Positions 1,062 to 60,590 are shown, numbered from the stretch's first letter. The stretch is DNA of 64,000 nt from Candidatus Spongiisociaceae bacterium (GCA_965202665.1 OZ241841.1:453743-517742), one strand, 5' to 3'. The notes: generated from the sequence alone by a model not told the origin. Program-made: numbers and translations.

Positions 1062-2387
1062 CTAGGGGGCGGGCCCGGCGCGGGCGGGCGGTTTTACGGT
1101 TCTGGTCGAGGGCGGAGGGGCGTTGGGCGGTTTGCTCCGGGGCCGGGTTTGCCATCTTTTTCCATTTTTTTCCAATTCCAGGTTGTGTTCCTGCAACTGC
1201 CGGTGATGGGGCCCGCACAGCAAAGCCAAGTTGTCGATGTCGGTGGGACCCCCGTCGCGCCAGTCCAGCAGGTGATGCAAATCCGTCTGGTGGGAAGAAA
1301 TGTCGCATCGGACGCATCCCCGATCCCGCACCGCGGCGGCCAGCCGTTGCGCGTCGTTGCCCAAGCGACGGCTGCGTCCCAGCCACAGCACCCGCCCGTC
1401 GCCGCCGAAGATAATCCCGCACACGTTGTCGTCCGGGGAGAGGTCCGCCAACAGGGAAGGCGGAACCGGCCCGCTGCCCAAAATCTCGCATGACCCGTCG
1501 GGGCGGGTCCCGTCCAACAACCCCAGGTCGGCCACTACCACCAACTGCGTAACCGCTTTACCCGACTTATTGTCGGGAAGGGGACGCATGGTGTCGGCGT
1601 CCCGGCCGGTCAACAGTTCCACCAAAGCGTCCGCCCGCCGTTGCGGGTTGGTGCGGATGTCATCGGGATGAGCCTCCCCGCCGGAGTCGGCCCGCCGCAG
1701 ATTCTCGGCGTGCAAGTCCAAGGCCTGCCGCACCTGCCCGAACCGGATGGGATCCAACTCGGCGTGCAAGATTCCCATCCCGGTTCCCGGTTCGGTGAAC
1801 ATTTTCACTTTCCGCAGGCGCCGTTGCCGTTCCAGCAGTTTCTCCCCCCGGTCGGCGGAGTGGGCGTTGGCCCACTGCTTGGCCTCCTTGCGGAAATGGT
1901 CCGGGTTGGTTCGGGCGGCGTTCTCCAACAAGTCCCGGTTCTGATCGACCTGCGCCGCCCCGCACTCCCCCGCCGCCGCGGTCAGCGCCGTGGCGTTCTC
2001 CAAAGTGATCTCCCCCGCCTGCAACTTGGCCCGCGTGTTGGGCATCTCCTCCAACTTCTGCGCTACCCGTGAGAGGTGCTTGGCCCCATGGTTGGTCATG
2101 CCCAACTGGTCCCGCAACACATGGTCCGCCCCGGCCCCTCCGTCGGCGCGGCTCAGTTGTCCGGCCAAGTCGCATTTCAAAGAGGACACCTGGGCTTCCA
2201 TCCGTTTCACCGTCTCCGCCAGCTCGCCCAACGCCGCCCGGGACAGGCCCGCCCCCACCTGCCCGCGCAACTCAGCCACGGCGTCGGCGGTGGCGGCCTC
2301 GGCCCGCTGGCAGACCCGCCGCAACTTGTCGGTAATAGGGTTGTGCTGTTTCATAGTGTTCACCATAGTAAATAGAGGGTGTGACAT
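1062..2387 (-). CDS. DUF222 (13E12-repeat) domain protein with C-terminal HNH endonuclease motif
   Basis: 441-aa ORF. The C-terminal ...DIDNLALLCGPHHRQLQEHNLE is the HNH signature, and the N-terminal architecture is typical of actinobacterial DUF222-HNH proteins. Alternative starts are M at 2354 or 2387. Confidence 0.7.
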   Translation of the reverse strand: MSHPLFTMVNTMKQHNPITDKLRRVCQRAEAATADAVAELRGQVGAGLSRAALGELAETVKRMEAQVSSLKCDLAGQLSRADGGAGADHVLRDQLGMTNHGAKHLSRVAQKLEEMPNTRAKLQAGEITLENATALTAAAGECGAAQVDQNRDLLENAARTNPDHFRKEAKQWANAHSADRGEKLLERQRRLRKVKMFTEPGTGMGILHAELDPIRFGQVRQALDLHAENLRRADSGGEAHPDDIRTNPQRRADALVELLTGRDADTMRPLPDNKSGKAVTQLVVVADLGLLDGTRPDGSCEILGSGPVPPSLLADLSPDDNVCGIIFGGDGRVLWLGRSRRLGNDAQRLAAAVRDRGCVRCDISSHQTDLHHLLDWRDGGPTDIDNLALLCGPHHRQLQEHNLELEKNGKRWQTRPRSKPPNAPPPSTRTVKPPARAGPAP

Positions 2388-3060: not shown

Positions 3061-3084
3061 TCAGCCGTACACCGGGTCAGTGGC

Positions 3085-3150
3085 CGAATGCCTGCTGGGC
3101 GGGGGCGGCGGCCTCGTGGGGGTGTTGCAGGATGTTGTTCCAGATCCATA
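3085..3150 (-). pseudogene. Relic 3'-end fragment of a fourth DUF1156-family methyltransferase copy
   Basis: The reverse complement reads ...IWNNILQHPHEAAAPAQQAFGH*. Compare the paralog C-termini ...[20 protein letters not shown]. The DNA motif GGCGGCCTCGTGGG(G/C)GTGTTGCA..GTTGTTCCAG is shared with the 3' ends at 3177-3226 and 5999-6050. Confidence 0.55.
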
Positions 3151-3157
3151 GGAAGGG

Positions 3158-5536
3158 TCAGGATTGAAAGATTTGCTGGGATGGGGCGACGGCCTCGTGG
3201 GCGTGTTGCAAAAGGTTGTTCCAGGAAACAATCAGCGAATTATAAGCCACCGCATCCTCAGTGCGACCGGCTCCGTTGGCCACCTCATACAGCAAGTAGG
3301 CCAGATGACGGGCGTAGTCGCCCAAACCCGGTCCCGCCCGAGCCAGCAACACCCCGGCCTGGGCATCCGACCTGCCCTGGCGGGCCACCAAATGCTGAGT
3401 GAGCTCCCACACCGTCAACCGCCGATCCTCCGCCGGATCCCACTCCGGATCCAACTCATCCCTGGTCAACAACCGCACTCGGCCCCCTTTGGATTCCGCC
3501 ACCTCCGCCTCCACCACCCCCGACACTGACGTGTTCATCGCCTTCGCCAACGTCTCCGCATCCCCAAACGGACCCGGCTGATGACCGAACTGCCGATACC
3601 AGGTAAGGGCGAACCTGCTGTCGGCATCCAAATCGGTCTCCTCCTGGGACAGGATTTCCTCCAGCACCCCGTTAATCAGAGCCAGGGCGGTGCGTACCCG
3701 CATCGTGGAACCGTCTGCTTCCACCACCCGCTTATACCGGGAGAACACCCGCATACCCGGCCCGATAGCCGACTGCGCCATATCCACCGGCGGGATAGCC
3801 TGCTCCTGCAACAAACCCACCGCCTCCGGCAACTCCTCCCGCAACGCCGCCAAAAACCCACCCCGCGTCTCCAACCGAGCATCCACCCCCCGAGGCCGAC
3901 AAGCCAACACCACCGACGACGACAACGCCGCGGCACCCTCGGCCACCGCCCGATTCGCCATCTCAGTTCGAACCGGCCAAGTCGCAGTAACCTCTAACCC
4001 AGCATCCACCAAGCCCTGCAAAAACGTCTCCCAACCGGTAGATGTTGTTGTCCCCTCTTTTATTTCCTGCTGTTTGAAACCATAAAAAAGGGTTGACGGA
4101 AAGTCGGAATGTTGATTTTGGGCTATCTGTTCCATTACTGCCAACATCCCCGACTCAAAATGTTTCCTCGCGTCATCTTGGGAACCTGCTCTCCAAGTAT
4201 TAGAAACCAACTCATCTTTTTTTGGCGTCTGCAAGGTAGCACACTCATCCGGCCACACATCCGACAGATTATGACGAAGCCACACATAGAAAAAATCAGA
4301 TATATCCGCATACTGAATATTGTCATAGTAGGGAGGATCAGTGCAAACAAGCGGTCTCTCCACTTCAACCAACCGAGCTGCCGCATCCCGTTGTAAAATC
4401 TCCCCAATATCGGAAGCTGGAAAATGAGCAACAGCCTTCGCTACCCAGTTCACCTGCCCCAGCCAGTTACCAGTTGATCCAGAAAATGGATTAACCTCAG
4501 CATAATCCCAAATCATCGCTATTGCCTGCCTTCCGAATGTACAACGGATTTTTTCGGATCTGTTTTGCCAACTGCACACTGAGGACCAGTAATCGGCGCA
4601 CCTATCAACTGCGAAAGCCAAATAGGTAACCAACGCATCAGCATACGCAACTACGCCCAACCCACCATCACGAACCCTTGTTCCATCATCAATCCACCCA
4701 ACATTACGAATATCCTGCTCAACCTTCTCTCTCAATTCGGATAACAAATCGGAAAAGGTCGTCAAAGCAACCAACTGACGAGAAGTAAACAAATCACCCC
4801 ACTCGGTCATACCATACGCAGGAACACTGTCAGTAGCTTTTCCTTGTAACTTACCAGATGGCCTCCATCGTGGCTCCGGAACATCCGGTTTTTCAGGTGG
4901 CGATACGTACTCGCGACCTCTGCTCCCTTCAACTACAGCACCTATACATTCTTCCCTCATCAATCCACGCTGACCCTGCTCCCTTACATATCCGAGCGCA
5001 ATCGGCGCTCCGGTCGCCACGCAGATGCCTCCTCCCCTGGCGATGGTGCCTCCCTTTGGAGTTCCGCCTTCCCTCACCTGGTAGGTCACTGTTTGGGTGT
5101 CCCGGTTCACAATCGGTTCTACCCACACCACCGGCTTGCCCGGCTTGTTGCGCAGCACCCCAGATTTGAGCAGGGGCACATGGCCTTTCCAGGACGGGTC
5201 GGGGGACTGGACGGTCCTGGCCCACAACCAGGCAATCACCGTTTTGCCATCCACCTTTGGGTATAGATGGCCTATTTGTTCCCACGCCCGCTCCCGCATC
5301 CACTCTCCGTAGTATCTGATGTCCTCGGCTAAACCCTGCGCACCCTTCCAAGTCTTCAACCCCGACTCCCCACGGCTGACGGGATTGACCGGGGGCCGTC
5401 CCGCGAAGCGAGGCGGAATCTCCACCATCGCCTTTGTTATCAAGACGGGGACGGGGTTTAGATCGCCCCCGTAAGCGGACAGGCCCAACCGTTGGGCCTC
5501 TAGTGGAATCGTCCCGCCGCCGCAGAACGGGTCCAA
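3158..5536 (-). CDS. DNA methyltransferase, DUF1156-family paralog 1, catalytic body (motif I DPFCGGGT, motif IV DPPY). It is separated from its N-terminal domain by a frameshift inside a (GT)12 tract.
   Basis: 792-aa ORF starting [15 protein letters not shown], then ...[22 protein letters not shown]. The frame stays open upstream through the dinucleotide repeat as (HT)n. It is 90-99% identical to copies 2 and 3 at both ends and divergent in the middle. Confidence 0.8.
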   Translation of the reverse strand: MDPFCGGGTIPLEAQRLGLSAYGGDLNPVPVLITKAMVEIPPRFAGRPPVNPVSRGESGLKTWKGAQGLAEDIRYYGEWMRERAWEQIGHLYPKVDGKTVIAWLWARTVQSPDPSWKGHVPLLKSGVLRNKPGKPVVWVEPIVNRDTQTVTYQVREGGTPKGGTIARGGGICVATGAPIALGYVREQGQRGLMREECIGAVVEGSRGREYVSPPEKPDVPEPRWRPSGKLQGKATDSVPAYGMTEWGDLFTSRQLVALTTFSDLLSELREKVEQDIRNVGWIDDGTRVRDGGLGVVAYADALVTYLAFAVDRCADYWSSVCSWQNRSEKIRCTFGRQAIAMIWDYAEVNPFSGSTGNWLGQVNWVAKAVAHFPASDIGEILQRDAAARLVEVERPLVCTDPPYYDNIQYADISDFFYVWLRHNLSDVWPDECATLQTPKKDELVSNTWRAGSQDDARKHFESGMLAVMEQIAQNQHSDFPSTLFYGFKQQEIKEGTTTSTGWETFLQGLVDAGLEVTATWPVRTEMANRAVAEGAAALSSSVVLACRPRGVDARLETRGGFLAALREELPEAVGLLQEQAIPPVDMAQSAIGPGMRVFSRYKRVVEADGSTMRVRTALALINGVLEEILSQEETDLDADSRFALTWYRQFGHQPGPFGDAETLAKAMNTSVSGVVEAEVAESKGGRVRLLTRDELDPEWDPAEDRRLTVWELTQHLVARQGRSDAQAGVLLARAGPGLGDYARHLAYLLYEVANGAGRTEDAVAYNSLIVSWNNLLQHAHEAVAPSQQIFQS

Positions 5537-5567
5537 GACTTTGATGTTTTGGAGGGCTTTTAGATGG

Positions 5568-5921
5568 TTAGTGTGTGTGTGTGTGTGTGTGTGTTACTAC
5601 ACTATTTATGATTTCTTGACGAGCCTCATCCAAAACATCCTGATCGTTGCTACTCTCCCAACGCACCAACCGTTCCAGAACGCCGAACAGACGCTTGCGC
5701 TCAATCTTCTGGTCTTCCACCGTTGGGAAAACATCCGGACGGGAAGACGGATCATCCACCAGCGACGCCCACAACACCGCCCGCGCCGCCGCCAACGGAC
5801 GACGGGCCCACCACAAATGCAAAGTCGAAGGATGGCCGTGACGAATAGACTTCTCGCGGGCCGACTCCCGGCTTATCACCTCCAACGGCAACGCCACCTC
5901 AATAAGTTTCCTTTTTTTCAA
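5568..5921 (-). CDS. N-terminal DUF1156 domain fragment of methyltransferase paralog 1 (terminates right after the (GT)12 tract)
   Basis: ORF 5568..5948. [58 protein letters not shown], then ...[12 protein letters not shown]. The probable start is the TTG at 5921, 4 nt after GGAGG. The product is encoded as (TH)n from the repeat, then TAA. Confidence 0.7.
5569..5592. repeat. (GT)12 dinucleotide simple-sequence repeat inside methyltransferase paralog 1 (inter-domain linker)
   Basis: gtgtgtgtgtgtgtgtgtgtgtgt at 5569-5592. A repeat length congruent to 1 mod 3 (for example 11 or 14 units) would fuse 5568..5921 with 3158..5536 into one ~920-aa ORF. Confidence 0.9.
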
Positions 5922-5985
5922 GCAACCTCCCAGAGCAAAGCCGTGCAAAAGCCTACCTGCACCACATCCGGGGGGTGGGGCAGGA

Positions 5986-8688
5986 TTAGAGGGTTTGCTG
6001 GAAGGGGGTGGCGGCCTCGTGGGCGTGTTGCAGGATGTTGTTCCAAGACAGGACCAGCGAATTGTAGGCTACCGCGTCCTCGGTGCGGCCGGTGCTGTTG
6101 GCCGCCTCGTATAACAGGTAGGACAAATGACGGGCTTGGTCGCCCAAACCGGGTCCCGCCTTCGCCAGCAACCACCCGGCTTGGGCGTCCGACCTGGCCT
6201 GGCGGGCCGCCATATGCTGAGTGAGCTCCCACACCGTCAACCGCCGATCCTTCGGCGGATTCCACTCCGGGTCCAACTCGTCCCTGGTCAGCAACCGCAC
6301 CTTGCTCCCCTTGGACTCCGCCACACCGGCATCCACTACCCCGGACACCGACGTGTTCATCGCCTTCGCCAACGTCTCCGCATCCCCGAACGGACCCGGC
6401 TGATGGCCAAACTTCTTATACCAAGTCAGGGCGAACCGGCTGTCGGCATCCAAATCGGCCTCCGCCGTTGACAGGACTTCTTCCAGCACCCCGTTAATCA
6501 GAGCCAAAGCGGTGCGCACCGGCATTGTGGAGCCGTCCGCTTCCACCACCCGGCGATACCGGGAGAACACCCGCATGCCCGGGCCGATAGCCGACTGCGC
6601 CATATCCACCGGCGGGATGGCCTGCTCCTGCAACAACCACACCGCCTCCGGTAACTCTTCCCGCAACGCCGACAAAAACCCGCCCCGCGTCTCCAACCGC
6701 GCATCCACCGACCGAGGCCGACACACCAACACCACCGACGACGACAACGCCGCGGCGCCCCTGGCCGCCGCCCGATTCGCCCTCTCGGTTCGAATCGGCC
6801 ATGTGGCGGTTACTTCTAAGCCGGCATCCACCAAACCCTGCAACATCTCCCAGCCGCCTGATTTCACGTCCTGCTGTTTGAAAGCGCAAAAGATCGTCGC
6901 TGGAAAGTCAGCGTGTTGATTATGGGCTATCTGTTTCATTACCGCGGACATTCCCGACTCAAAATATTCTCTTGCTTTATCTTGCGAACCCGCTCGTTGA
7001 ACATTAGCTACCAGTTCTTCTTTCTTTGGCGTCTGCAAAGTGGCGCACTCTTCCGGCCACACATCCGACAGGTTACGACGAAGCCATACATAGAAAAAAT
7101 CGGAAATATCCGCATATTGAATGTTATCATAATGGGGCGGGTCTGTACAAATAACCGGTCTCTCCACTTCAACCAATCGGGCTACCGCATCTCCTTGCAA
7201 AACCTCCCCGGTATCAGAACCCGGCAAATTGGCAACGGCCTTTGCTATCCACTCCACCTGCCCCATCCAGTTACCGGTTGACCCAGAAAACGGATTACCC
7301 TCAACATAATCCCAAATCATCGCTATTGCTTGCCTTCCAAATGTACCGCGAATGATTTCCCTACTGCTATTCCAACTGCACATTGAAGACCAATAATCGG
7401 CGCACCTGTCAACTGCGAAAGCCAAATAGGTTACCAAAGCATCAGCATAGGCGACCACACCCGACCCGTCATCCCGAAGCCTGATTGCATCATCAACTCC
7501 ACTCACGCTGCGGGCGTCTCGCTCAACCATCTCCCTCATCTCGGATAGCAAATCAGAAAAGGTCGTCAGGGCAACCATCTGACGAACGGTAAACAAATCC
7601 GCCCACTCATTTATCCCATACAAGGAAACATTGCTACCTGCTTTTCCTTGTAACTTACCGGATGGCATCCATCGCGGCTCCGGAACATCCGGCATTATGG
7701 GCGGAACGACATATTCACAACCGCCACTACCTTCAACCACTGCGCATACGCACGCTTCCCCCATCAACCCCCGCTGACCTTGCTCTCTTACATAATGGAG
7801 CGTAATGGGGGCTCCGGTCGCAACGCAGACGCCCCCGCCCCTGGCGATGGTGCCTCCTTTAGGCGTTCCGCCTTCCCTCACCTGAAAGGCCACCGTTTGG
7901 GCATCCCGATTTGCTATTGGCTCCACCCACGCCGCCGGTTTGCCCGGCTTGTTGCGCAACACCCCGGATTTGAGCAGGGACACATGGCCTTTCCAGGCCG
8001 GGTCGGGGGACTGGACGGTTCTGGCCCACAACCAGGCGATCACCGTTTTGCCATCCACCTTCGGATACAGACGGCCGATACGCTCCCAGGCTCGCTCCCG
8101 CATCCACTCCCCGTAAAAACGGATGTCCGCGGCCAACCCCTGCGTCCCCTCCCAAACCTTCGAACCCGACTCGGCAAGGCGGGAAGGATTGACCGGCGGC
8201 CGTCCCGCAAAGCGGAACGGGATCTCCACCATCGCCTTCGTTATCAAAACCGGAACCGGATTCAAATCGCCCCCGTACGCGGACAGGCCCAAACGTTGGG
8301 CCTCCAACGGAATCGTCCCGCCCCCGCAGAAGGGGTCCAACACGTTGGGCAAATCATCCCCGCACGACGCCCCAATCTCGGCCTTGGCTTCAGCCAACAC
8401 CTCCTGATTGTTGCTGTTTTCCCACACCACCAAGCGTTCCAAAATGTCAAACAGGCGCTTGCGCTCCCTCTTCTGGTCTTCAACCTTAGGGAACCTGCCG
8501 GGATGGGCGGACGGGTCGTCCACCAGCGACGCCCACAACACCGCCCGCGCCGCCGCCAACGGACGGCGGGCCCACCACAAATGCAAAGTGGAAGGATGGC
8601 CGTGCCGGATGGATTTCTCCCGGGCCGACTCCCGACTGATCGCCTCCAACGGCAACGCCACCTCAATCAGTTTTCTTTTCAGATTCAA
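5986..8688 (-). CDS. DNA methyltransferase, DUF1156-family paralog 2 (intact, no SSR in linker)
   Basis: 900 aa, starting (M)[42 protein letters not shown], then ...[15 protein letters not shown]...[22 protein letters not shown]. The start is the TTG at 8688, preceded by GGGAGGTGG. The linker is [17 protein letters not shown] with no repeat. Confidence 0.85.
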
Positions 8689-8751
8689 ACCACCTCCCAG
8701 AGCAAACCGCCAAAAGCCTACCCCGCATCACATTCCAAGGGAAGGTCGGGA

Positions 8752-11541
8752 TTAGAGGGTTTGCTGGACGGGGGCGACGGCCTCGTGGGCGTGTTGCAGA
8801 AGGTTGTTCCAGGAAACAATCAGCGAATTGTAAGCCACCGCATCCTCAGTGCGGCCAGCACTGTTGGCCACCTCATACAGCAAGTAGGCCAGATGACGGG
8901 CATAGTCGCCCAAACCCGGTCCCGCCCGAGCCAGCAACACCCCGGCCTGGACATCCGACCGGCCCTGGCGGGCCACCAAATGCTGAGTAAGCTCCCACAC
9001 CGTCAACCGCCGATCCTCCGCCGGATCCCACTCCGGGTCCAACTCATCCCTGGTCAACAACCGCACCTTGCCGCCCTTAGATTCCGCCACCTCCGCCTCC
9101 ACCACCCCCGACACCGACGTGTTCATCGCCTTCGCCAACGTCTCCGCATCCCCAAACGGACCCGGCTGATGCCCAAACTGCCGATACCAGGTAAGGGCAA
9201 ACCGGCTGTCGGCATCCAAATCGGTCTCCTCCTGAGACAGGATTTCCTCCAGCACCCCGTTAATCAAGGCAAGGGCGGTGCGCACCCGCATCGTGGAACC
9301 GTCCGCTTCCACCACCCGCTTATACCGGGAGAACACTCGCATACCAGGTCCGATAGCCGACTGCGCCATATCCACCGGAGGAATGGCCTGCTCCTGCAAC
9401 AACCCCACCGCCTCCGGCAATTCTTCCCGCAACGCCGCCAAAAACCCACCCCGCGTCTCCAACCGAGCATCCACCGACCGCGGCCGACAAGCCAACACCA
9501 CCGACGACGCCAGTAACGCTTTAGTCTTAGAACCCAATTTTCCAGGCCTTTCAGTCCGAATAGGCCAAGTCGCAATTACCTGCAAACCAGCATCCACCAG
9601 ACTTTGCAGAAACGTCTCCCAACCGGTAGATGTAGTCTCACCAGATTTGATCTCCTTCTGTTTGAAAGCATAGAAAATCGTCGACGGGAAATCGGGATGT
9701 TGATTATGGGCTATCTGCTCCATCACTTTAAACATTCCTGACTCAAAATGTTCTTTTGCTACTTCTTTGGACCCTGCTCGCCAACGATTAGCAACTAACT
9801 CCTCTTTCTTTGGCGTCTGTAGTGTTGAACATTCATCTGGCCATACATCCGACAGGTTACGACGGAGCCATACATAGAAAAAATCTGAAATATCGGCATA
9901 AAAAATATTATCATAATAAGGCGGATCCGTACTAATAACCGGTCTTTCCACCTTACCTAACTGTGCTACTGCATCTCGTTGCCAAATATCACCAAACGGC
10001 GAACTTGGTAAATGAGCAACGGATTTAGCTACCCATTCAATCTGGCCTAACCAATTACCAGTTGAAAAAGAGAATGGGTTGGCTTCCGCAAAGTCCCAAA
10101 CCATACCTATTACCTGCCTACCAAAAAGGCTTGCGATTTTTTCGGCACCGTCCTGCCATCTTGATAAGCTATTCCATCGGTCAGTACACCTATCTATAGC
10201 AAAAGCTAGGTATGTTATAACTGCATCTGCATAGGCAATATTACCAATCCCACCATCCCTGAAACCTCTTTTCTCATTAGTCAGTCCCCTGTGAATTGCG
10301 TCTTCCTCTACCATCGCTCTTATGTCTAATAGTAAATCGGAAAAGATATTTAAAGCAATCAACTGGCGATTAGTAAACAAGTCTCCCCACTCAATCATCC
10401 CGTACAAAGGAACATTACCTGAGGCCTTGCCATGCAAAGTACCAACAGGCATCCAGAAAGGTGCCGGAATATCGGGTATTACAGGCGCAGAAACATACTC
10501 ACGACCTCTGCTTCCTGCAACTACAACCCCTATACATACTTTTCGTATTAATCCTTTCTTGCCTTGCTCCTTAATATAATCGAGCAAAATCGGGGCACCG
10601 GTCGCAATGCAGACACCTCCTCCCCTCCCAATAGTGCCTCCACTCGGCGTTCCACTTTTCCTTACTTGGTAGATCACTGTTTGGGTATCCCGGTTCACAA
10701 TTGGCTCTACCCACACCACTGGCTTGCCCGGCTTGTTGCGTAGCACCCCGGATTTGAGCAAGGGCACGTGGCCTTTCCAGGACGGGTCGGGGGACTGTAC
10801 CGTCCTAGCCCACAACCAGGCGATCACCGTTTTGCCATCCACCTTTGGGTATAGATAACCTATTTGTTCCCACGCCTTCTTTCGCATCCACTCTCCGTAG
10901 TATCTGATGTCCTCTGCTAAACCCTGCGCTCCCTTCCAAGTCTTCAACCCCGACTCCCCACGACTGACAGGGTTGACCGGCGGCTGTCCCGCGAACCGAG
11001 GTGGGATTTCCACCATCGCCTTGCTGATTAGTACTGCAACAGGGTTTAGGTCACCCCCATACGCGGAGAGGCCCAAACGTTGGGCCTCCAGTGGAATCGT
11101 CCCTCCCCCACAGAAGGGATCTAAAACCTTGATTTTTGATAGAATCTCTGCTAGGTTATCATTAGCTGTTGTGTTGTGTTGTGTTGTGTTGTGTTGTGTT
11201 GTGTTGTGTTGTGTTGTGTTGTGTTGGCTATTTGCGATTTCTCTTCGGGCTTGATCCAACACGTCCTGGTTGTTGGAATTTTCCCAAACCACAAGCCTTT
11301 CCAGGATTCCGAATAGTCTTTTTCTCTCGACCTTTTGATCTTCTGCGGTGGGGAACTGGTCGGGGTGGGAGGACGGGTCATCCACCAGCGACGCCCACAG
11401 CACCGCCCGCGCCGCCGCCAGCGGGCGGCGGGCCCACCATAGATGCAGGGTGGAAGGGTGGCCGTGCCGGATGGCTTTCTCGCGGGCGGATTCCCTGCTT
11501 ATGGCCTCCAGGGGCAGGGCTACTTCTATCAGTTTCTTCAT
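8752..11541 (-). CDS. DNA methyltransferase, DUF1156-family paralog 3 (in-frame (GTGTT)12 linker repeat)
   Basis: The ORF track gives 8752..12360. The real start is the ATG at 11541 ([40 protein letters not shown]); upstream of that the frame overlaps rsmI. The linker is ...[45 protein letters not shown]. Confidence 0.85.
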   Translation of the reverse strand: MKKLIEVALPLEAISRESAREKAIRHGHPSTLHLWWARRPLAAARAVLWASLVDDPSSHPDQFPTAEDQKVERKRLFGILERLVVWENSNNQDVLDQARREIANSQHNTTQHNTTQHNTTQHNTTANDNLAEILSKIKVLDPFCGGGTIPLEAQRLGLSAYGGDLNPVAVLISKAMVEIPPRFAGQPPVNPVSRGESGLKTWKGAQGLAEDIRYYGEWMRKKAWEQIGYLYPKVDGKTVIAWLWARTVQSPDPSWKGHVPLLKSGVLRNKPGKPVVWVEPIVNRDTQTVIYQVRKSGTPSGGTIGRGGGVCIATGAPILLDYIKEQGKKGLIRKVCIGVVVAGSRGREYVSAPVIPDIPAPFWMPVGTLHGKASGNVPLYGMIEWGDLFTNRQLIALNIFSDLLLDIRAMVEEDAIHRGLTNEKRGFRDGGIGNIAYADAVITYLAFAIDRCTDRWNSLSRWQDGAEKIASLFGRQVIGMVWDFAEANPFSFSTGNWLGQIEWVAKSVAHLPSSPFGDIWQRDAVAQLGKVERPVISTDPPYYDNIFYADISDFFYVWLRRNLSDVWPDECSTLQTPKKEELVANRWRAGSKEVAKEHFESGMFKVMEQIAHNQHPDFPSTIFYAFKQKEIKSGETTSTGWETFLQSLVDAGLQVIATWPIRTERPGKLGSKTKALLASSVVLACRPRSVDARLETRGGFLAALREELPEAVGLLQEQAIPPVDMAQSAIGPGMRVFSRYKRVVEADGSTMRVRTALALINGVLEEILSQEETDLDADSRFALTWYRQFGHQPGPFGDAETLAKAMNTSVSGVVEAEVAESKGGKVRLLTRDELDPEWDPAEDRRLTVWELTQHLVARQGRSDVQAGVLLARAGPGLGDYARHLAYLLYEVANSAGRTEDAVAYNSLIVSWNNLLQHAHEAVAPVQQTL
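11166..11225. repeat. (GTGTT)12 pentanucleotide simple-sequence repeat inside methyltransferase paralog 3
   Basis: ctgtt followed by 11 gtgtt units, 60 nt in total, encoding (QHNTT)4 in frame. A change of one or two units gives a frameshift. Confidence 0.9.
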
Positions 11542-11555
11542 CGGGGCAACCTTAG

Positions 11556-12380
11556 TTACTTGGCCCGGAGCGTGGCCTGATATAGGGCCCGGCGGCTTAG
11601 GCCTGTGTTTTCGGCTACTTGGCGCACTGCGTCCGACATGGCCGCGCCCGCCTCCATTCGGGACAGCACTTCGGTTACCGCTTCGTCCAGCGGGGCTTCC
11701 CCGGCCTCCGCCCCCTCGACGACCAGGGTGAATTCGCCTTGGGGCTTTTCCGACCCCCATTTTTCCTCCGCCTCCTCCAGCGTGCCCCACCATATTTCTT
11801 CGTGCATTTTGGTCAGCTCCCGGGCGGCGCACGTCCGCCGGTGGCCGCCCAGGGCTTCGGCCAAACTTTCCAGGTCGTCCAACAGGTGGTGGGGGGCGAT
11901 GAACAGCACCATCGGGCGTTCCTCCCCGGCCAAGGATTCCAGGCGCCGGGCGCGGTCGCCTCCTTTGCGGGGCAGAAACCCTTCGAACGTGAACCGGTCG
12001 GCGGCGAACCCGGATACGGCCAGGGCGGCCGGGACGGCGCAGGGGCCGGGAATCACCGACACTTCCGCCCCGGCCCGCAGGGCGTCCGCCACCGCCCGGC
12101 GCCCCGGATCGGCCACCCCCGGCGTCCCGGCGTCGGTGATCAGGGCCGCCGTCCCCCCCGCCTCCAACATGCGCGCCAGCCGCTCCGACTTCTGCGCTTC
12201 GTTGCCCGCGTAATAAGATTCGGGGCGGACGGACGCCCCGCAATGTTCCAGCAAAATCCGGGCCCGGCGGGTGTCTTCGGCGAACACCGCGTCCGCTTCC
12301 CGCAACGTTTCCAGCAGGCGGGCGGAAACATCCCCCAGGTTGCCGATGGGGGTGGCGCACAGAATCAGCCGGCCGCTCAT
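11556..12380 (-). CDS. rsmI: 16S rRNA (cytidine1402-2'-O)-methyltransferase RsmI
   Basis: 274 aa. MSGRLILCATPIGNLGDVSARL...ITDAGTPGVADPG...TFEGFLPRKG...TKMHEE is the RsmI/tetrapyrrole-methylase fold. The start is the ATG at 12380. The ORF-track N-terminal extension is spurious. Confidence 0.85.
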   Translation of the reverse strand: MSGRLILCATPIGNLGDVSARLLETLREADAVFAEDTRRARILLEHCGASVRPESYYAGNEAQKSERLARMLEAGGTAALITDAGTPGVADPGRRAVADALRAGAEVSVIPGPCAVPAALAVSGFAADRFTFEGFLPRKGGDRARRLESLAGEERPMVLFIAPHHLLDDLESLAEALGGHRRTCAARELTKMHEEIWWGTLEEAEEKWGSEKPQGEFTLVVEGAEAGEAPLDEAVTEVLSRMEAGAAMSDAVRQVAENTGLSRRALYQATLRAK

Positions 12381-13927
12381 TCTTCGGCCCTCATCTGGGC
12401 GGCGGCCCGTCTTCCCGCCTCGGCGTCGTCGGCCACCACCAAAGTCAGCGTCTCCCCCTGTCGGCCCAGCAGGGCGTACACGTCCCCGCCCGGCCATTCC
12501 AAAGTGGTGCCCGACAGGGTGGAAATCCCCACCGGCAACCCGCCCACCAGGTCCACCAGGGCGGCGGCCATGCGCGAGGCGTCCGCGAAAGAGTCGCCCC
12601 GGTAGCGCACCGCCCACACCAGATGCCCCCGCTCCGGGTTCCACAGCAGTTGGAACCGGTCGCCCCCCCATCCCCGGGCGGCGTCGGCGGCCTGCGCGAA
12701 CCGGCCTCCGCCGCCCAGCAGGGCCCGCCATCCCCGTTCCCCCCAAGTTCCCTCCTCCGCCGTCTCGTAGCCTTCCAACGCCACCGCGAACGGCTCCAGC
12801 GGGACGGGCGGCTCCATCCGGTTGTACAGGTCGGGGTGCAGCACCTGTTCGGTGGAGACGGGCGGGGCGGCCAAAGCCCGGTCCAACCCGGTCGTCCCCT
12901 CCTGCCGGTAAAGATGCAGGGCCAGGGCGGAACCGGCCGCCGTCGCGAACCGGGCCTGCTCCGCCAGGAAGGGCGGCCCCTGGGCGAACCCGGGCCGGGC
13001 GTCGGCCGCGGCCTGCTCGGCCAGGGCCGCCCGCCGCTCCTCCGGCAGGGCGTCGGCGTACAAGGTCTGAACGAGGGCCGCCTCCCCGGCCAGCAACGCC
13101 CCCACGGCAGCCGCCCGGTCGGGATCGCCGTCTTCCGCCAAAGCCGAATGTTCCTCCACCGTTTCCGGATAGTGCAGATGGGCCAGCATCCGGGTCAAAG
13201 CCCCCGCCAGGGCCCACTGCTGATACTCGTCCAACCCGTCCAAGCCCTCCCCCTCCCCCTCAGGTTGCGCCCCCTCCGGCGACGCAGCGTCTTCCCCTTC
13301 CCCCTCAGGTTGCGCCTGCGGCGGCGGGTCTTCTTCCCCGTCCGGCGGCTCCTCCCCCTCCCCCGCTTCGGCCTCCTCGGCGGGTTGCGGGGGGTCGGGG
13401 GTCAGCGGGATCACCACCCGTCCCCGTTCCGCCTGGTAGAAGGGCAGTTCCGGGGTGCGCCCCGTTTGAAAAGAACGGTAGAAGGATTCCAGGTCGGCTT
13501 CGGGGGGGAGCAGGTTGAACAAGTCCAGAAAAGCCCGCTCATAGTCTTCCGGGACGGTTGGGGGGGCCTCCGCCGCAGGTTGCGTCACCACCAACGGGAG
13601 GGAAGGAAACTTTCTCCCCCGCAACTGTTCGACGCGGGCGGTCAACTCGTTCACCTGTTCTTCCAAAGCACCGGGCAGGGGCGGACGGGGGGGGACGGTG
13701 GTGGTCGTGGTAGGCGGGAGGGTGGTGGTGGTGACGACGCGGGTGGCAGGGGGGACGGTGGTGGCGACGGAAACGGCGGAGGTGGCGGCCGGCGCGGCGG
13801 ACGGGGGCGGGGCGGTGGGCCCGGCGGTTTCGGAACCGCACCCGGCGACTACCGCCAGCAGGACGGACAGTATCGTCGCCCGCAACGCGGGGCGGTTGAA
13901 TATCACGGGTTTCACGGGCGATGCCAA
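12377..13927 (-). CDS. Putative lipoprotein of unknown function (Pro/Glu-rich linker). Its stop overlaps the rsmI start in an ATGA overlap.
   Basis: 516-aa ORF with signal peptide and lipobox (LLAVVAGCGSE), a (T/P)-rich segment, and an acidic PEGEGE low-complexity insert. High-GC codon usage is consistent with a real gene. Confidence 0.5.
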   Translation of the reverse strand: MASPVKPVIFNRPALRATILSVLLAVVAGCGSETAGPTAPPPSAAPAATSAVSVATTVPPATRVVTTTTLPPTTTTTVPPRPPLPGALEEQVNELTARVEQLRGRKFPSLPLVVTQPAAEAPPTVPEDYERAFLDLFNLLPPEADLESFYRSFQTGRTPELPFYQAERGRVVIPLTPDPPQPAEEAEAGEGEEPPDGEEDPPPQAQPEGEGEDAASPEGAQPEGEGEGLDGLDEYQQWALAGALTRMLAHLHYPETVEEHSALAEDGDPDRAAAVGALLAGEAALVQTLYADALPEERRAALAEQAAADARPGFAQGPPFLAEQARFATAAGSALALHLYRQEGTTGLDRALAAPPVSTEQVLHPDLYNRMEPPVPLEPFAVALEGYETAEEGTWGERGWRALLGGGGRFAQAADAARGWGGDRFQLLWNPERGHLVWAVRYRGDSFADASRMAAALVDLVGGLPVGISTLSGTTLEWPGGDVYALLGRQGETLTLVVADDAEAGRRAAAQMRAEE

Positions 13928-15499: not shown

Positions 15500-15781
15500 A
15501 TGCACCAGCAAACCAACCCAATGTTTGAAACACCGCCAAAGATAGCACTGTGGGCAGTCGTAACATTACTGTTAGCAGGTTGCGCTAGTGCCTCCAACAG
15601 CTCCTCTGCGTCCACCATCAACGATGGGATTGTTCCATTGTATTTGGAGGAGGTGGTTCCGCCGTGTGTTCCCACTGAGTTGGAACCTGATCCTTGTCCG
15701 CCGGATTTACCTGCTCATATTGTAGAATCTAACCATCAGGGGCTTGCTGCCGTGCTTATGCGTGGTTCCTTCCTTCAATGA
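15500..15781 (+). CDS. Lipoprotein signal-peptide ORF (probable N-terminal part of the following surface protein, separated by a frame change)
   Basis: MHQQTNPMFETPPKIALWAVVTLLLAGCASASNS carries a lipobox LAGC. It ends at 15781, where GC content drops abruptly. Confidence 0.4.
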   Translation: MHQQTNPMFETPPKIALWAVVTLLLAGCASASNSSSASTINDGIVPLYLEEVVPPCVPTELEPDPCPPDLPAHIVESNHQGLAAVLMRGSFLQ

Positions 15782-17030
15782 AAGGCTATTGTGGGATCCC
15801 CAAATGGATGGATCTAGTAGTATCCATATTGTTGTAAGAGGAACTGTTAAAACCAACACTACCAGATGCGATCTCTATAAAGATAAAGTAGCTGATTATG
15901 TAGTAAAGTTATATACAACAATTCGTGTGGTTGATCAATACCTAGTAGATTATTATGATTATAATTGCTTTGCAGAAGTCGCAGTGAAAGAATATATAGT
16001 AGGCGAAGGCCCACCTTCTCTAACAGTAATAACTTATAAACAAGGTATGCATAGGAGTCATCTAGATTCTGAGGGAAATGTTAGTGATTATTTCTTAGAA
16101 TATATTGATCCCAAAACGAAAGCAATCGCTCATGAAGGTAGAGAAATTATCTTTTTCCTGGGTCCTTCTCCGTCTATAGAAGTAGAGGCCTGGGCTGGAT
16201 TAGGGGGTGGAAGCATGTGGTTCCTGCAACAGACCGAAGATGGCATAAGGGCCATAGCTGATTACTATCGAATAGCCGTACTAGAAGAACATCGCCAAAA
16301 ATTGAATCTGCCGCTAGATGAAATGATAGAAGACATCAAACAAGCCGCCATAAATAGAGCCACCCTGACCGGAGGACGGATAGGAACCGATCCGGAACTA
16401 CCCATGTATATTACCGATGCCAACAAACTACGCGACCACTATATCGAAGTAGGAGCCGTATACGATGCTACCGAACAAGCAACCAAATTACCTCCACCGG
16501 TTCCTGGGGAAGGTGATCCTCCTGCGCCTACTATTCCAACCAACGATGGAACGACGGGAACCACCGTACCGGCACCGGGGGCAGAACCGACCATTCCACC
16601 ACCGACGGATGATGCGGGACTTTCCATCGAGCAGGAAACCACAACCACCACCGAAACAACTACTACCACCACCACCACCACAACAGAGGTTGCGTCCGTA
16701 GTGTCGACCACTACCGAACCGGTGGCAACCACGACCACTACTGCGGGAACCGTAACGGAACCTGTCACTGGTACGACTACCACATCCACCACAACTACAT
16801 CGGAACCACCGGGCGGGGAAAATGATGCTCCGTCTGTGAATGTCGGTCCTCCGGAAGAAGAACAGACCACCACCACTACAGAAACGCCAGAGTCAGGGGA
16901 AGGCGACATTCCGGAGGAAACCCCCTCAACAACCGTCCCAGCCGGCGACAGCATTCCCCCGCCCGCCGAAGACAACCAACCCGGCCAAGAACCGGCGCCT
17001 GCCGGCCCGGTTGATGAACCCGCAAGCTAA
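15744..17030 (+). CDS. Thr/Pro-rich secreted or surface protein of unknown function. Its N-terminal domain is encoded by an AT-rich (~40% GC) island.
   Basis: 428-aa ORF. 15790-16480 is AT-rich. The C-terminal half is TTTTTETTTTTTTTTT..PPPAEDNQPGQEP low-complexity linker. There is no signal peptide in this frame, whereas the upstream ORF in another frame supplies one. This suggests a frameshift or pseudogene. Confidence 0.45.
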   Translation: MLPCLCVVPSFNERLLWDPQMDGSSSIHIVVRGTVKTNTTRCDLYKDKVADYVVKLYTTIRVVDQYLVDYYDYNCFAEVAVKEYIVGEGPPSLTVITYKQGMHRSHLDSEGNVSDYFLEYIDPKTKAIAHEGREIIFFLGPSPSIEVEAWAGLGGGSMWFLQQTEDGIRAIADYYRIAVLEEHRQKLNLPLDEMIEDIKQAAINRATLTGGRIGTDPELPMYITDANKLRDHYIEVGAVYDATEQATKLPPPVPGEGDPPAPTIPTNDGTTGTTVPAPGAEPTIPPPTDDAGLSIEQETTTTTETTTTTTTTTTEVASVVSTTTEPVATTTTTAGTVTEPVTGTTTTSTTTTSEPPGGENDAPSVNVGPPEEEQTTTTTETPESGEGDIPEETPSTTVPAGDSIPPPAEDNQPGQEPAPAGPVDEPAS

Positions 17031-33004: not shown

Positions 33005-33032
33005 ACGCTACCCCCCCCCCCCAATTTGTCAA
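33005..33032 (-). promoter_or_regulatory. Promoter-like element of paralog A: TTGACA-aatt-G12-TAGCGT (16-bp spacer)
   Basis: The + strand reads acgcta C12 aatt tgtcaa. It lies ~52 nt upstream of the start codon. The same element precedes all five paralogs with G-tract lengths of 11-13. Confidence 0.5.
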
Positions 33033-38687: not shown

Positions 38688-38714
38688 ACGCTACCCCCCC
38701 CCCCAATATGTCAA
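38688..38714 (-). promoter_or_regulatory. Promoter-like element of paralog B: TTGACA-tatt-G11-TAGCGT (15-bp spacer)
   Basis: The + strand reads acgcta C11 aata tgtcaa. It is a variant with the duplicated -35 region TTGACTTGACA. Confidence 0.45.
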
Positions 38715-45982: not shown

Positions 45983-46011
45983 ACGCTACCCCCCCCCCCC
46001 AATTTGTCAAA
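45983..46011 (-). promoter_or_regulatory. Promoter-like element of paralog C: TTGACA-aatt-G13-TAGCGT (17-bp spacer)
   Basis: The + strand reads acgcta C13 aatt tgtcaa. Confidence 0.5.
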
Positions 46012-53298: not shown

Positions 53299-53325
53299 AC
53301 GCTACCCCCCCCCCCAATTTGTCAA
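53299..53325 (-). promoter_or_regulatory. Promoter-like element of paralog D: TTGACA-aatt-G11-TAGCGT (15-bp spacer)
   Basis: The + strand reads acgcta C11 aatt tgtcaa. Confidence 0.5.
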
Positions 53326-60561: not shown

Positions 60562-60590
60562 ACGCTACCCCCCCCCCCCAATTTGTCAAA
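60562..60590 (-). promoter_or_regulatory. Promoter-like element of paralog E: TTGACA-aatt-G13-TAGCGT (17-bp spacer)
   Basis: The + strand reads acgcta C13 aatt tgtcaa. Confidence 0.5.

Follow-up and report, generated by a model that had tools for sequence, protein, structure and literature searches.

The 64,000-nucleotide (nt) stretch analysed here, from a Candidatus Spongiisociaceae bacterium (GCA_965202665.1 OZ241841.1:453743-517742; the window), carries, immediately past rsmI on the minus strand, three co-directional paralogs in tandem that encode predicted methyltransferases of the HmaB/DUF1156 family and share 81% amino acid (aa) identity. An earlier note made from the sequence alone, the original prediction, had proposed that simple-sequence repeats in two of these genes switch them ON and OFF; gene 1, gene 2 and gene 3 as numbered here are copy 3, copy 2 and copy 1 of that note. 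Gene 1 (complement 8752-11541; 929 aa) is in frame (ON), and its product is identical to protein P0001 in public data. Its start was placed at MKKLIEV, at position 11541 and 14 nt past the rsmI stop; a longer open reading frame (ORF) reaching up to 12360 was rejected as read-through into rsmI. Gene 2 (complement 5986-8688; 900 aa) is intact and has an ordinary 26-aa linker with no repeat. Gene 3 (complement 3158-5921) is out of frame (OFF) and falls into an N-terminal DUF1156 ORF (5568-5921) and a body ORF (3158-5536). The spacers in the array are 63-64 nt long and similar to one another, and counts of promoter and terminator signals within them are no higher than in shuffles. Past gene 3, a fourth HmaB copy has left a relic 3' end (3077-3150, minus strand), a remnant of 66 nt that is also conserved in the sister genome L081; it reads WNNILQHPHEAAAPAQQAFGH followed by a stop at 3077-3079. 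The relic had been predicted and is real, but it extends to 3077, slightly past the boundary of 3085 first given.

Linker repeats and reading frames

Tandem Repeats Finder identified two perfect repeats of 12.0 copies each in the array: (CAACA)12 in gene 1, which is (TGTTG)12 on the plus strand (11167-11226), and (AC)12 in gene 3, which is (GT)12 on the plus strand (5571-5594). With these, ORFs and repeats lie within 1-2 nt of where they had been predicted. Both repeats occupy the same site, i.e. the linker between the DUF1156 domain and the S-adenosylmethionine (SAM)-binding motif I, and each is a candidate switch of the gene that carries it. In gene 1, the 60-nt tract is read in frame and encodes (QHNTT)4, as stated in the original prediction. 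In gene 3, frame arithmetic bears out that the gene is split in two by the dinucleotide tract, with the body frame open through the repeat: the N-terminal frame meets a TAA directly after (AC)12. By the same arithmetic, the addition of one AC unit or the loss of two units gives an uninterrupted ORF of 921 aa, and the loss of one unit leaves the gene broken. Both alternative frames after each repeat run into a stop within 1-5 codons; taken over all out-of-frame states, translation ends within 0-5 codons, and OFF alleles leave a DUF1156 stub of ~120 aa. In an AlphaFold2 model of the gene 1 product, the repeat-encoded residues 111-124 have a predicted local distance difference test (pLDDT) score below 50, and the linker that they form is predicted to be disordered and length-tolerant.

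In 200 random windows generated with a first-order Markov model, the longest di- or pentanucleotide repeat had a mean length of 9.9 nt and a maximum of 16 nt, compared to the 24 and 60 nt observed. Apart from the two linker repeats, the only simple repeats above threshold in the 64 kb are five promoter poly-G tracts, which are described below.

For comparison, the same rsmI-adjacent locus was collected from seven other assemblies by way of protein-cluster members and their contigs, giving eight loci with the window. The window has (CAACA)12 ON, a copy with no repeat, and (AC)12 OFF. The sister chromosome L081 (2,764,661 bp, ~95% nt identity in the flanks) has (CAACA)12 ON, a copy with no repeat, and (AC)13 ON, the last of which encodes the intact 922-aa protein P0137. 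L082 has (CAACA)11 OFF with the 124-aa stub P0121; L083 has (CAACA)12 ON and two copies with (AC)12 OFF; L084 has (AC)16 ON and a copy with no repeat; in L088, the contig opens partway through an (AC) tract with 26 or more units, followed by a copy with no repeat and by (AC)13 ON; L089 has two copies with (AC)11 OFF; and L090 has a copy with no repeat and one with (AC)12 OFF. In total, (AC)11 (n=2), (AC)12 (n=4) and (CAACA)11 are out of frame, and (AC)13 (n=2), (AC)16 (n=1) and (CAACA)12 (n=3) are in frame. These alleles obey one frame rule with no exceptions: an ON state requires n = 1 mod 3 for (AC)n and n = 0 mod 3 for (CAACA)n. This comparison of sequences from close relatives shows that tract length varies among them and toggles the frame, and it supports the proposal that slippage turns these genes ON and OFF. 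The number of methylation states had been put at up to four; with three repeat-bearing copies in L083, four is no upper limit. The tracts agree between Illumina scaffolds and long-read chromosomes and, therefore, are not artefacts. The Illumina scaffold of L088 begins within the tract (positions 1-52), suggesting that much longer alleles occur and that assembly breaks at the repeat. The N-terminal module of AC type is found at another position of the array in L083 and L084, which points to recombination among the paralogs.

Repeats in this linker are not confined to the rsmI-adjacent locus. At other genomic sites, HmaB homologues carry (TCCAA)9 in L085, (CAACC)11 in the orthologous L086, (TC)13 in L087 and (AG)16 in L091; in L085-L087 the linker repeat is the sole repeat above threshold in 13-23 kb, and L091 was checked at the same thresholds. 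In the more distant Acidimicrobiia relatives L001, L005, L006 and L080 (three times in L080), the GGG of motif I is itself encoded by G11-12 tracts that are mostly out of frame. Over the first 80 related loci, 245 kb of HmaB genes contain 13 homopolymers of at least 9 nt, versus 2 in 1,227 kb of flanks. The N-terminal domain is absent from 27 of the 120 best protein homologues, which start at or just past motif I. Additional homopolymers lie deeper in HmaB, near aa 230-300 or 410 and each at a frame change (G15 and G14 in L006, 13740-13754 and 17140-17153; C13 in L080, 5559-5571; C12 in L028, 7181-7192), so that the linker is not the sole switch site in the HmaB family.

Enzyme family, selection and genomic setting

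Profile searches placed the three proteins in the family that had been predicted. Pfam DUF1156 (PF06634) was detected in all three copies (E 5e-29 to 5e-30; 6.5e-30 listed for gene 1), with Pfam finding this N-terminal domain only, and the PADLOC HmaB models (PDLC00660, PDLC00661) matched all three over profile positions 8-967 with 973-1019 bits (1019 bits for gene 1). The NCBIfam equivalog DUF1156_antiphage (NF042963) gave partial matches of 106-125 bits; given that these scores are far below its 1000-bit cut-off, the HmaB subfamily to which the window proteins belong is not the one that this model covers. All three genes contain motif I (DPFCGGG; minus strand; 11101-11121, 8317-8337 and 5513-5533 in genes 1, 2 and 3, respectively), and the catalytic motif IV (DPPYY) is present in gene 1 (9913-9927) and gene 3 (4325-4339); the motif I sites are invariant columns in a 60-sequence alignment. 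Gene 2 has DPPHY instead (7129-7143, minus strand), which deviates from the canonical (D/N/S)PP(Y/F/W). Throughout the lineage of the repeat-less gene 2, as represented by P0007-P0010 and cluster members, DPPH or NPPH is kept; in the sister genome, a G4 run within gene 2 has lost 1 nt by a plain deletion. Gene 2 may be a constitutive, an altered or an inactive copy and may not contribute a methylation state. The AlphaFold2 model of gene 1, built on the 60-sequence alignment (pLDDT 85.5, predicted template modelling score 0.84), has the Rossmann fold of a class I SAM methyltransferase. The predicted fold confirms a SAM-dependent amino-methyltransferase and does not settle whether its substrate is DNA or RNA.

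Between motifs I and IV, and extending beyond motif IV, lies a hypervariable region of low GC content that is presumed to be a target-recognition insert (minus strand; 9472-10644 in gene 1, ~aa 300-690; ~6694-7821 in gene 2; ~3854-5026 in gene 3). Its GC content is 41-50% versus 60-68% in the conserved ends and ~63-70% in the genome. As predicted, the central regions diverge between the paralogs; they also diverge between orthologues of two genomes that are ~95% identical. Window proteins and their sister orthologues have 30-77% aa identity over aa 300-690 versus 97-100% over aa 1-300 and 690-929, and the synonymous divergence (dS) of the central region is 0.8-1.5. In these comparisons the central region behaves like a presumed exchangeable target-recognition cassette. 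A near-identical C-terminal block exists (aa 689-929, 93-100% between gene 3 and gene 1) but comprises ~240 aa and not the ~340 first estimated.

The N-terminal domains are near-identical as proteins (~100%), as claimed. Their DNA, however, is just 72-89% identical, with dS reaching 2.2, and recent gene conversion was rejected on these grounds as the source of the protein identity. The ratio of nonsynonymous to synonymous divergence (dN/dS) is 0.03-0.21 in every segment of every pair, including the frameshifted gene 3 versus its intact orthologue P0137. Together, the low dN/dS and the N-terminal dS indicate purifying selection and neither recent conversion nor decay; pseudogene decay as the main explanation was rejected based on the dN/dS values.

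In order to find partners of these proteins, HmaA (Snf2 helicase-nuclease) and HmaC (DUF499 ATPase) from the PADLOC-verified canonical HmaA-HmaB-HmaC operon of L027 were searched by tblastn against the window and 80 related loci. Most related loci encode both. In the 64-kb window neither HmaA nor HmaC was found by tblastn, and HmaA was likewise not found in L001, L005 or L080. Also without HmaA and HmaC are the nearest relatives, L001 and L005 (Candidatus Spongiisociaceae) and L080, L013 and L019 (Acidimicrobiales), and L006 keeps a truncated HmaA only. On the 2,768,541-bp chromosome of the window or the 2,764,661-bp chromosome, no HmaC homologue was among the best 120 of 8000 matches, which is a weak negative. 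Tandem HmaB copies are also present in L080 (three) and L006 (at least five). Across the 80 loci, tract-bearing HmaB copies occur without intact HmaA/HmaC, and HmaB of canonical operons (e.g. L002-L004) is without tracts.

The best genome matches, with at most 70% aa identity, are metagenome-assembled genomes (MAGs) of sponge-associated Acidimicrobiia, and the syntenic contigs, which belong to one metagenome project labelled PANK22, appear to come from sponge metagenomes, as that label would suit a study of sponge holobionts. Based on these matches, the host is probably a sponge symbiont; the original prediction had supposed an environmental-type genome, and with sponge-symbiont Acidimicrobiia as nearest relatives the organism is probably not free-living.

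Directly upstream of the array, rsmI (11556-12401, minus strand; 16S rRNA 2'-O-methyltransferase; Pfam TP_methylase and RsmI_C) is the same neighbour in L081-L084, and the array and rsmI are probably co-transcribed. Downstream lies a co-directional gene for a DUF222-HNH endonuclease (1062-2387, minus strand; Pfam), for which PADLOC gave no match and NCBIfam nothing useful. An orphan HmaB gene is likewise followed by a homologue of this endonuclease gene in L001 (13063-14307), L085 (13759-14943), L086 (14323-15567), L019 (16311-17312) and L080 (13449-14429). The endonuclease gene thus accompanies orphan HmaB at five separate loci or species, and every canonical HmaA-HmaB-HmaC locus that was examined lacks it; it is possible that it encodes a nuclease partner or is part of a co-travelling mobile element. 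Between this gene and the array, a 71-bp tandem repeat (2806-2982; 2.5 copies, 83% match) has a related stretch in the sister genome (L081, 13016-13121). On the other side of the array, a 428-aa ORF (15744-17030, plus strand) has no Pfam match, an unusually low GC content at third codon positions of 0.41 and a surrounding GC content of 52-55%, and possibly represents foreign DNA.

The five poly-G tracts belong to a second gene family in the window. Five tandem giant paralogs (25778-60552, minus strand) encode proteins of 2400, 1870, 2384, 2382 and 2380 aa with a signal peptide and SLH and Calx-beta matches. Upstream of these five genes are tracts that are poly-C on the plus strand and G11 or G12 on the coding strand (33011-33022, 38694-38704, 45989-46000, 53305-53315 and 60568-60579). 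Each tract is embedded in the conserved context TTGACA-AATT-Gn-TAGCGT, at a distance of 60-70 nt from the downstream ATG, which places it in a promoter -35/-10 spacer of 15-16 nt. From its sequence, this arrangement looks like promoter-spacer phase or volume variation of giant surface-protein genes.

Probable repeat-driven switching and its alternatives

Combining the allele series with the reading frames, we consider it likely that the genes of this array are switched ON and OFF by their repeats. In this model, the array is a contingency locus of three HmaB-family genes for SAM-dependent methyltransferases whose helicase and ATPase partners in the Hma system would have been lost. Slipped-strand mispairing would be the cause of changes in unit number, making each repeat-bearing gene a heritable and reversible switch, which in the window would be ON for gene 1 and OFF for gene 3. 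The product of each gene that is ON would methylate DNA at a motif that its own variable central insert determines, with N6-adenine as the probable target, so that cells of one population would differ in methylation pattern. Over longer periods, recombination among the paralogs and imported cassettes may reshuffle the repeat-bearing N-terminal modules and the central inserts.

Several observations weigh against this model. The length differences are between samples or strains, and switching could be slow. The DPPH motif of gene 2, together with the frameshift of this gene in the sister genome, suggests that part of the array is decaying. HmaA or HmaC could be encoded elsewhere on the chromosome, and the homopolymer frameshifts in the long-read MAGs L001, L005 and L080 could partly be consensus errors. 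For HmaB, no activity has been demonstrated and no restriction-modification (R-M)-like effect on T4 was found (PMC11232893). With regard to the substrate, Foldseek against PDB gave no match at E <= 0.001, phmmer and a profile search of PDB sequences returned short motif-I matches only and did not separate DNA from RNA, and the best structural matches are tRNA m2G methyltransferases, so that a DNA substrate follows from family context only.

The structural matches lead to the alternative that survives best, in which switching by the repeats is real but acts on enzymes that modify RNA (m2G-type, like Trm11/Trm14/TrmN) or protein, or on proteins with a non-catalytic function, and in which no methylome switch exists. 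We regard this as improbable, given the company that the family keeps. The three-gene Hma system, a candidate defence system, has HmaB as its predicted methylase (PMC8565338), and the family is mostly found alongside genes for a Snf2 helicase-nuclease and a DUF499 ATPase, all in one operon. In DUF499-centred BREX-related systems, the methyltransferase core cannot be told apart from the core of Type-3 BREX PglX, and a target-recognition domain insert follows core strand 2 with helix-turn-helix-like domains at the C-terminus (bioRxiv 10.1101/2025.10.09.681413). Moreover, a hypervariable insert that is specific to the strain would be expected of sequence-specific DNA recognition more than of a conserved RNA target, and the genomic neighbours differ between loci.

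Alternatively, the paralogs could be redundant and decaying, the repeats being neutral expansions in a tolerant linker and the frameshifts ordinary inactivation on the way to gene loss. The broken gene 3, the deletion and the non-canonical motif of gene 2 described above, the relic of a fourth copy and the many truncated homologues all agree with such a process; yet both halves of the frameshifted gene 3 are under the constraint reported above, and the repeat is its sole lesion. All repeat units are non-triplet (1, 2 or 5 nt), whereas triplets would serve a peptide linker, and six different units have arisen at one site. The tracts are perfect and uninterrupted, and ON and OFF alleles of the same gene recur. 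Decay therefore appears even less probable than the preceding alternative. That the repeats or their lengths are assembly or consensus artefacts is scarcely credible: long-read homopolymer errors bear on the G11-13 tracts of L001, L005 and L080 and one Illumina contig (L088) breaks within its (AC) tract, but the same repeats occur at the same site in the window, in an independent 2.76-Mb chromosome (383x) and in six Illumina scaffolds from different samples, and di- and pentanucleotide tracts of 24-60 nt are well within read length.

Repeat-driven switching, the explanation that we favor, has counterparts in known systems. As in phase-variable Type III mod (modA, modH, modS and others) and Type I hsdM/hsdS genes, a non-triplet repeat near the 5' end of the ORF accompanies frameshift switching (PMC5909438, PMC7383803), target-recognition regions are strain-variable with conserved flanks, and several methyltransferase genes per genome switch independently. 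In contrast to these systems, the proteins here are of an HmaB/BREX-related family (~920 aa), the genes form a direct tandem array with no visible res or hsdR, and the host is of an uncultivated high-GC Acidimicrobiia lineage, a probable sponge symbiont and not a host-adapted pathogen. Like multi-hsdS switches and Type I hsdS shufflons (PMC7394358), the array holds several specificity variants side by side, with evidence that modules have moved between positions. An inversion-type shufflon was nevertheless rejected: all copies are direct repeats of complete genes, with neither inverted repeats nor a recombinase present, and any shuffling would be homologous recombination on an evolutionary scale instead of programmed inversion.

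The original prediction had known of no repeat-driven switch in a high-GC environmental-type genome. There is a high-GC precedent, by which a high GC content does not preclude such switching, in Streptomyces coelicolor pglX (Pgl, BREX type 2), which, in the part of PMC4365076 that cites Sumby & Smith 2003, is a defence methyltransferase of N6-adenine type in a high-GC actinobacterium with a tract-length switch; G tracts are likewise used in the relatives L001, L005, L006 and L080. Unlike pglX, which belongs to a complete pglWXYZ system and whose loss turns defence off, the genes described here have no partners within 64 kb, are three paralogs and use di- and pentanucleotide repeats. The similarity to the Hma system (HmaA helicase, HmaB methylase, HmaC ATPase; PMC8565338, PMC11232893) comprises the end-to-end HmaB match with DUF1156, motifs I and IV and the C-terminal region; the differences are that HmaA and HmaC are missing from the locus, that the gene is triplicated, and that repeats interrupt or extend the linker.

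Implications for HmaB proteins and sponge symbionts

Viruses of sponge Acidimicrobiales often carry methyltransferases, and methylase genes of sponge symbionts and their viruses are reported to be under frequency-dependent selection (PMC11410982). Based on these reports, the defence origin of the family and the strain-specific recognition regions, we favor a role in which switching would most likely be of benefit in an arms race with phages and foreign DNA inside the sponge. Epigenetic regulation, i.e. a phasevarion, is about equally possible, and a regulatory role of this type fits the orphan status equally well.

More broadly, and only tentatively, we raise the idea that sponge-symbiont Acidimicrobiia run a systematic contingency programme. 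Defence-derived HmaB genes, detached from HmaA/HmaC and amplified into tandem arrays with exchangeable cassettes and independent repeat switches, would act as a combinatorial epigenetic or self-marking switch, perhaps with DUF222-HNH as a new nuclease partner in what would be a new, minimal phase-variable R-M-like system. Together with five poly-G-tuned giant SLH proteins, this would generate population heterogeneity toward phages and host in a mutualistic symbiont. As a whole, we consider this scheme rather unlikely.

To our knowledge, nearly all descriptions of phase-variable DNA methyltransferases come from host-adapted pathogens and concern Type I, Type III and BREX pglX enzymes. In searches of the literature, no earlier description of repeat switching turned up for DUF1156/HmaB proteins or for sponge symbionts. 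As a principle, such switching is familiar from phase-variable mod and the pglX G-tract; new are the enzyme family, the loss of partners, the tandem array, the variety of repeat units and the host lineage.

If the switching model is correct, phase variation would extend to the HmaB/DUF1156 family and to a high-GC, uncultivated actinobacterial lineage that is probably a sponge symbiont. The architecture would be one not described before: an orphaned defence methyltransferase in tandem triplicate, with at least six repeat units recruited to one linker position. Such genes are now annotated as fragments or pseudogenes, and roughly one in four of the nearest homologues in databases is "truncated" at the motif I point. 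With natural ON and OFF alleles present in long-read metagenomes, the recognition motif would be readable from the methylation signals on the same molecules, which would provide a route to the function of HmaB.

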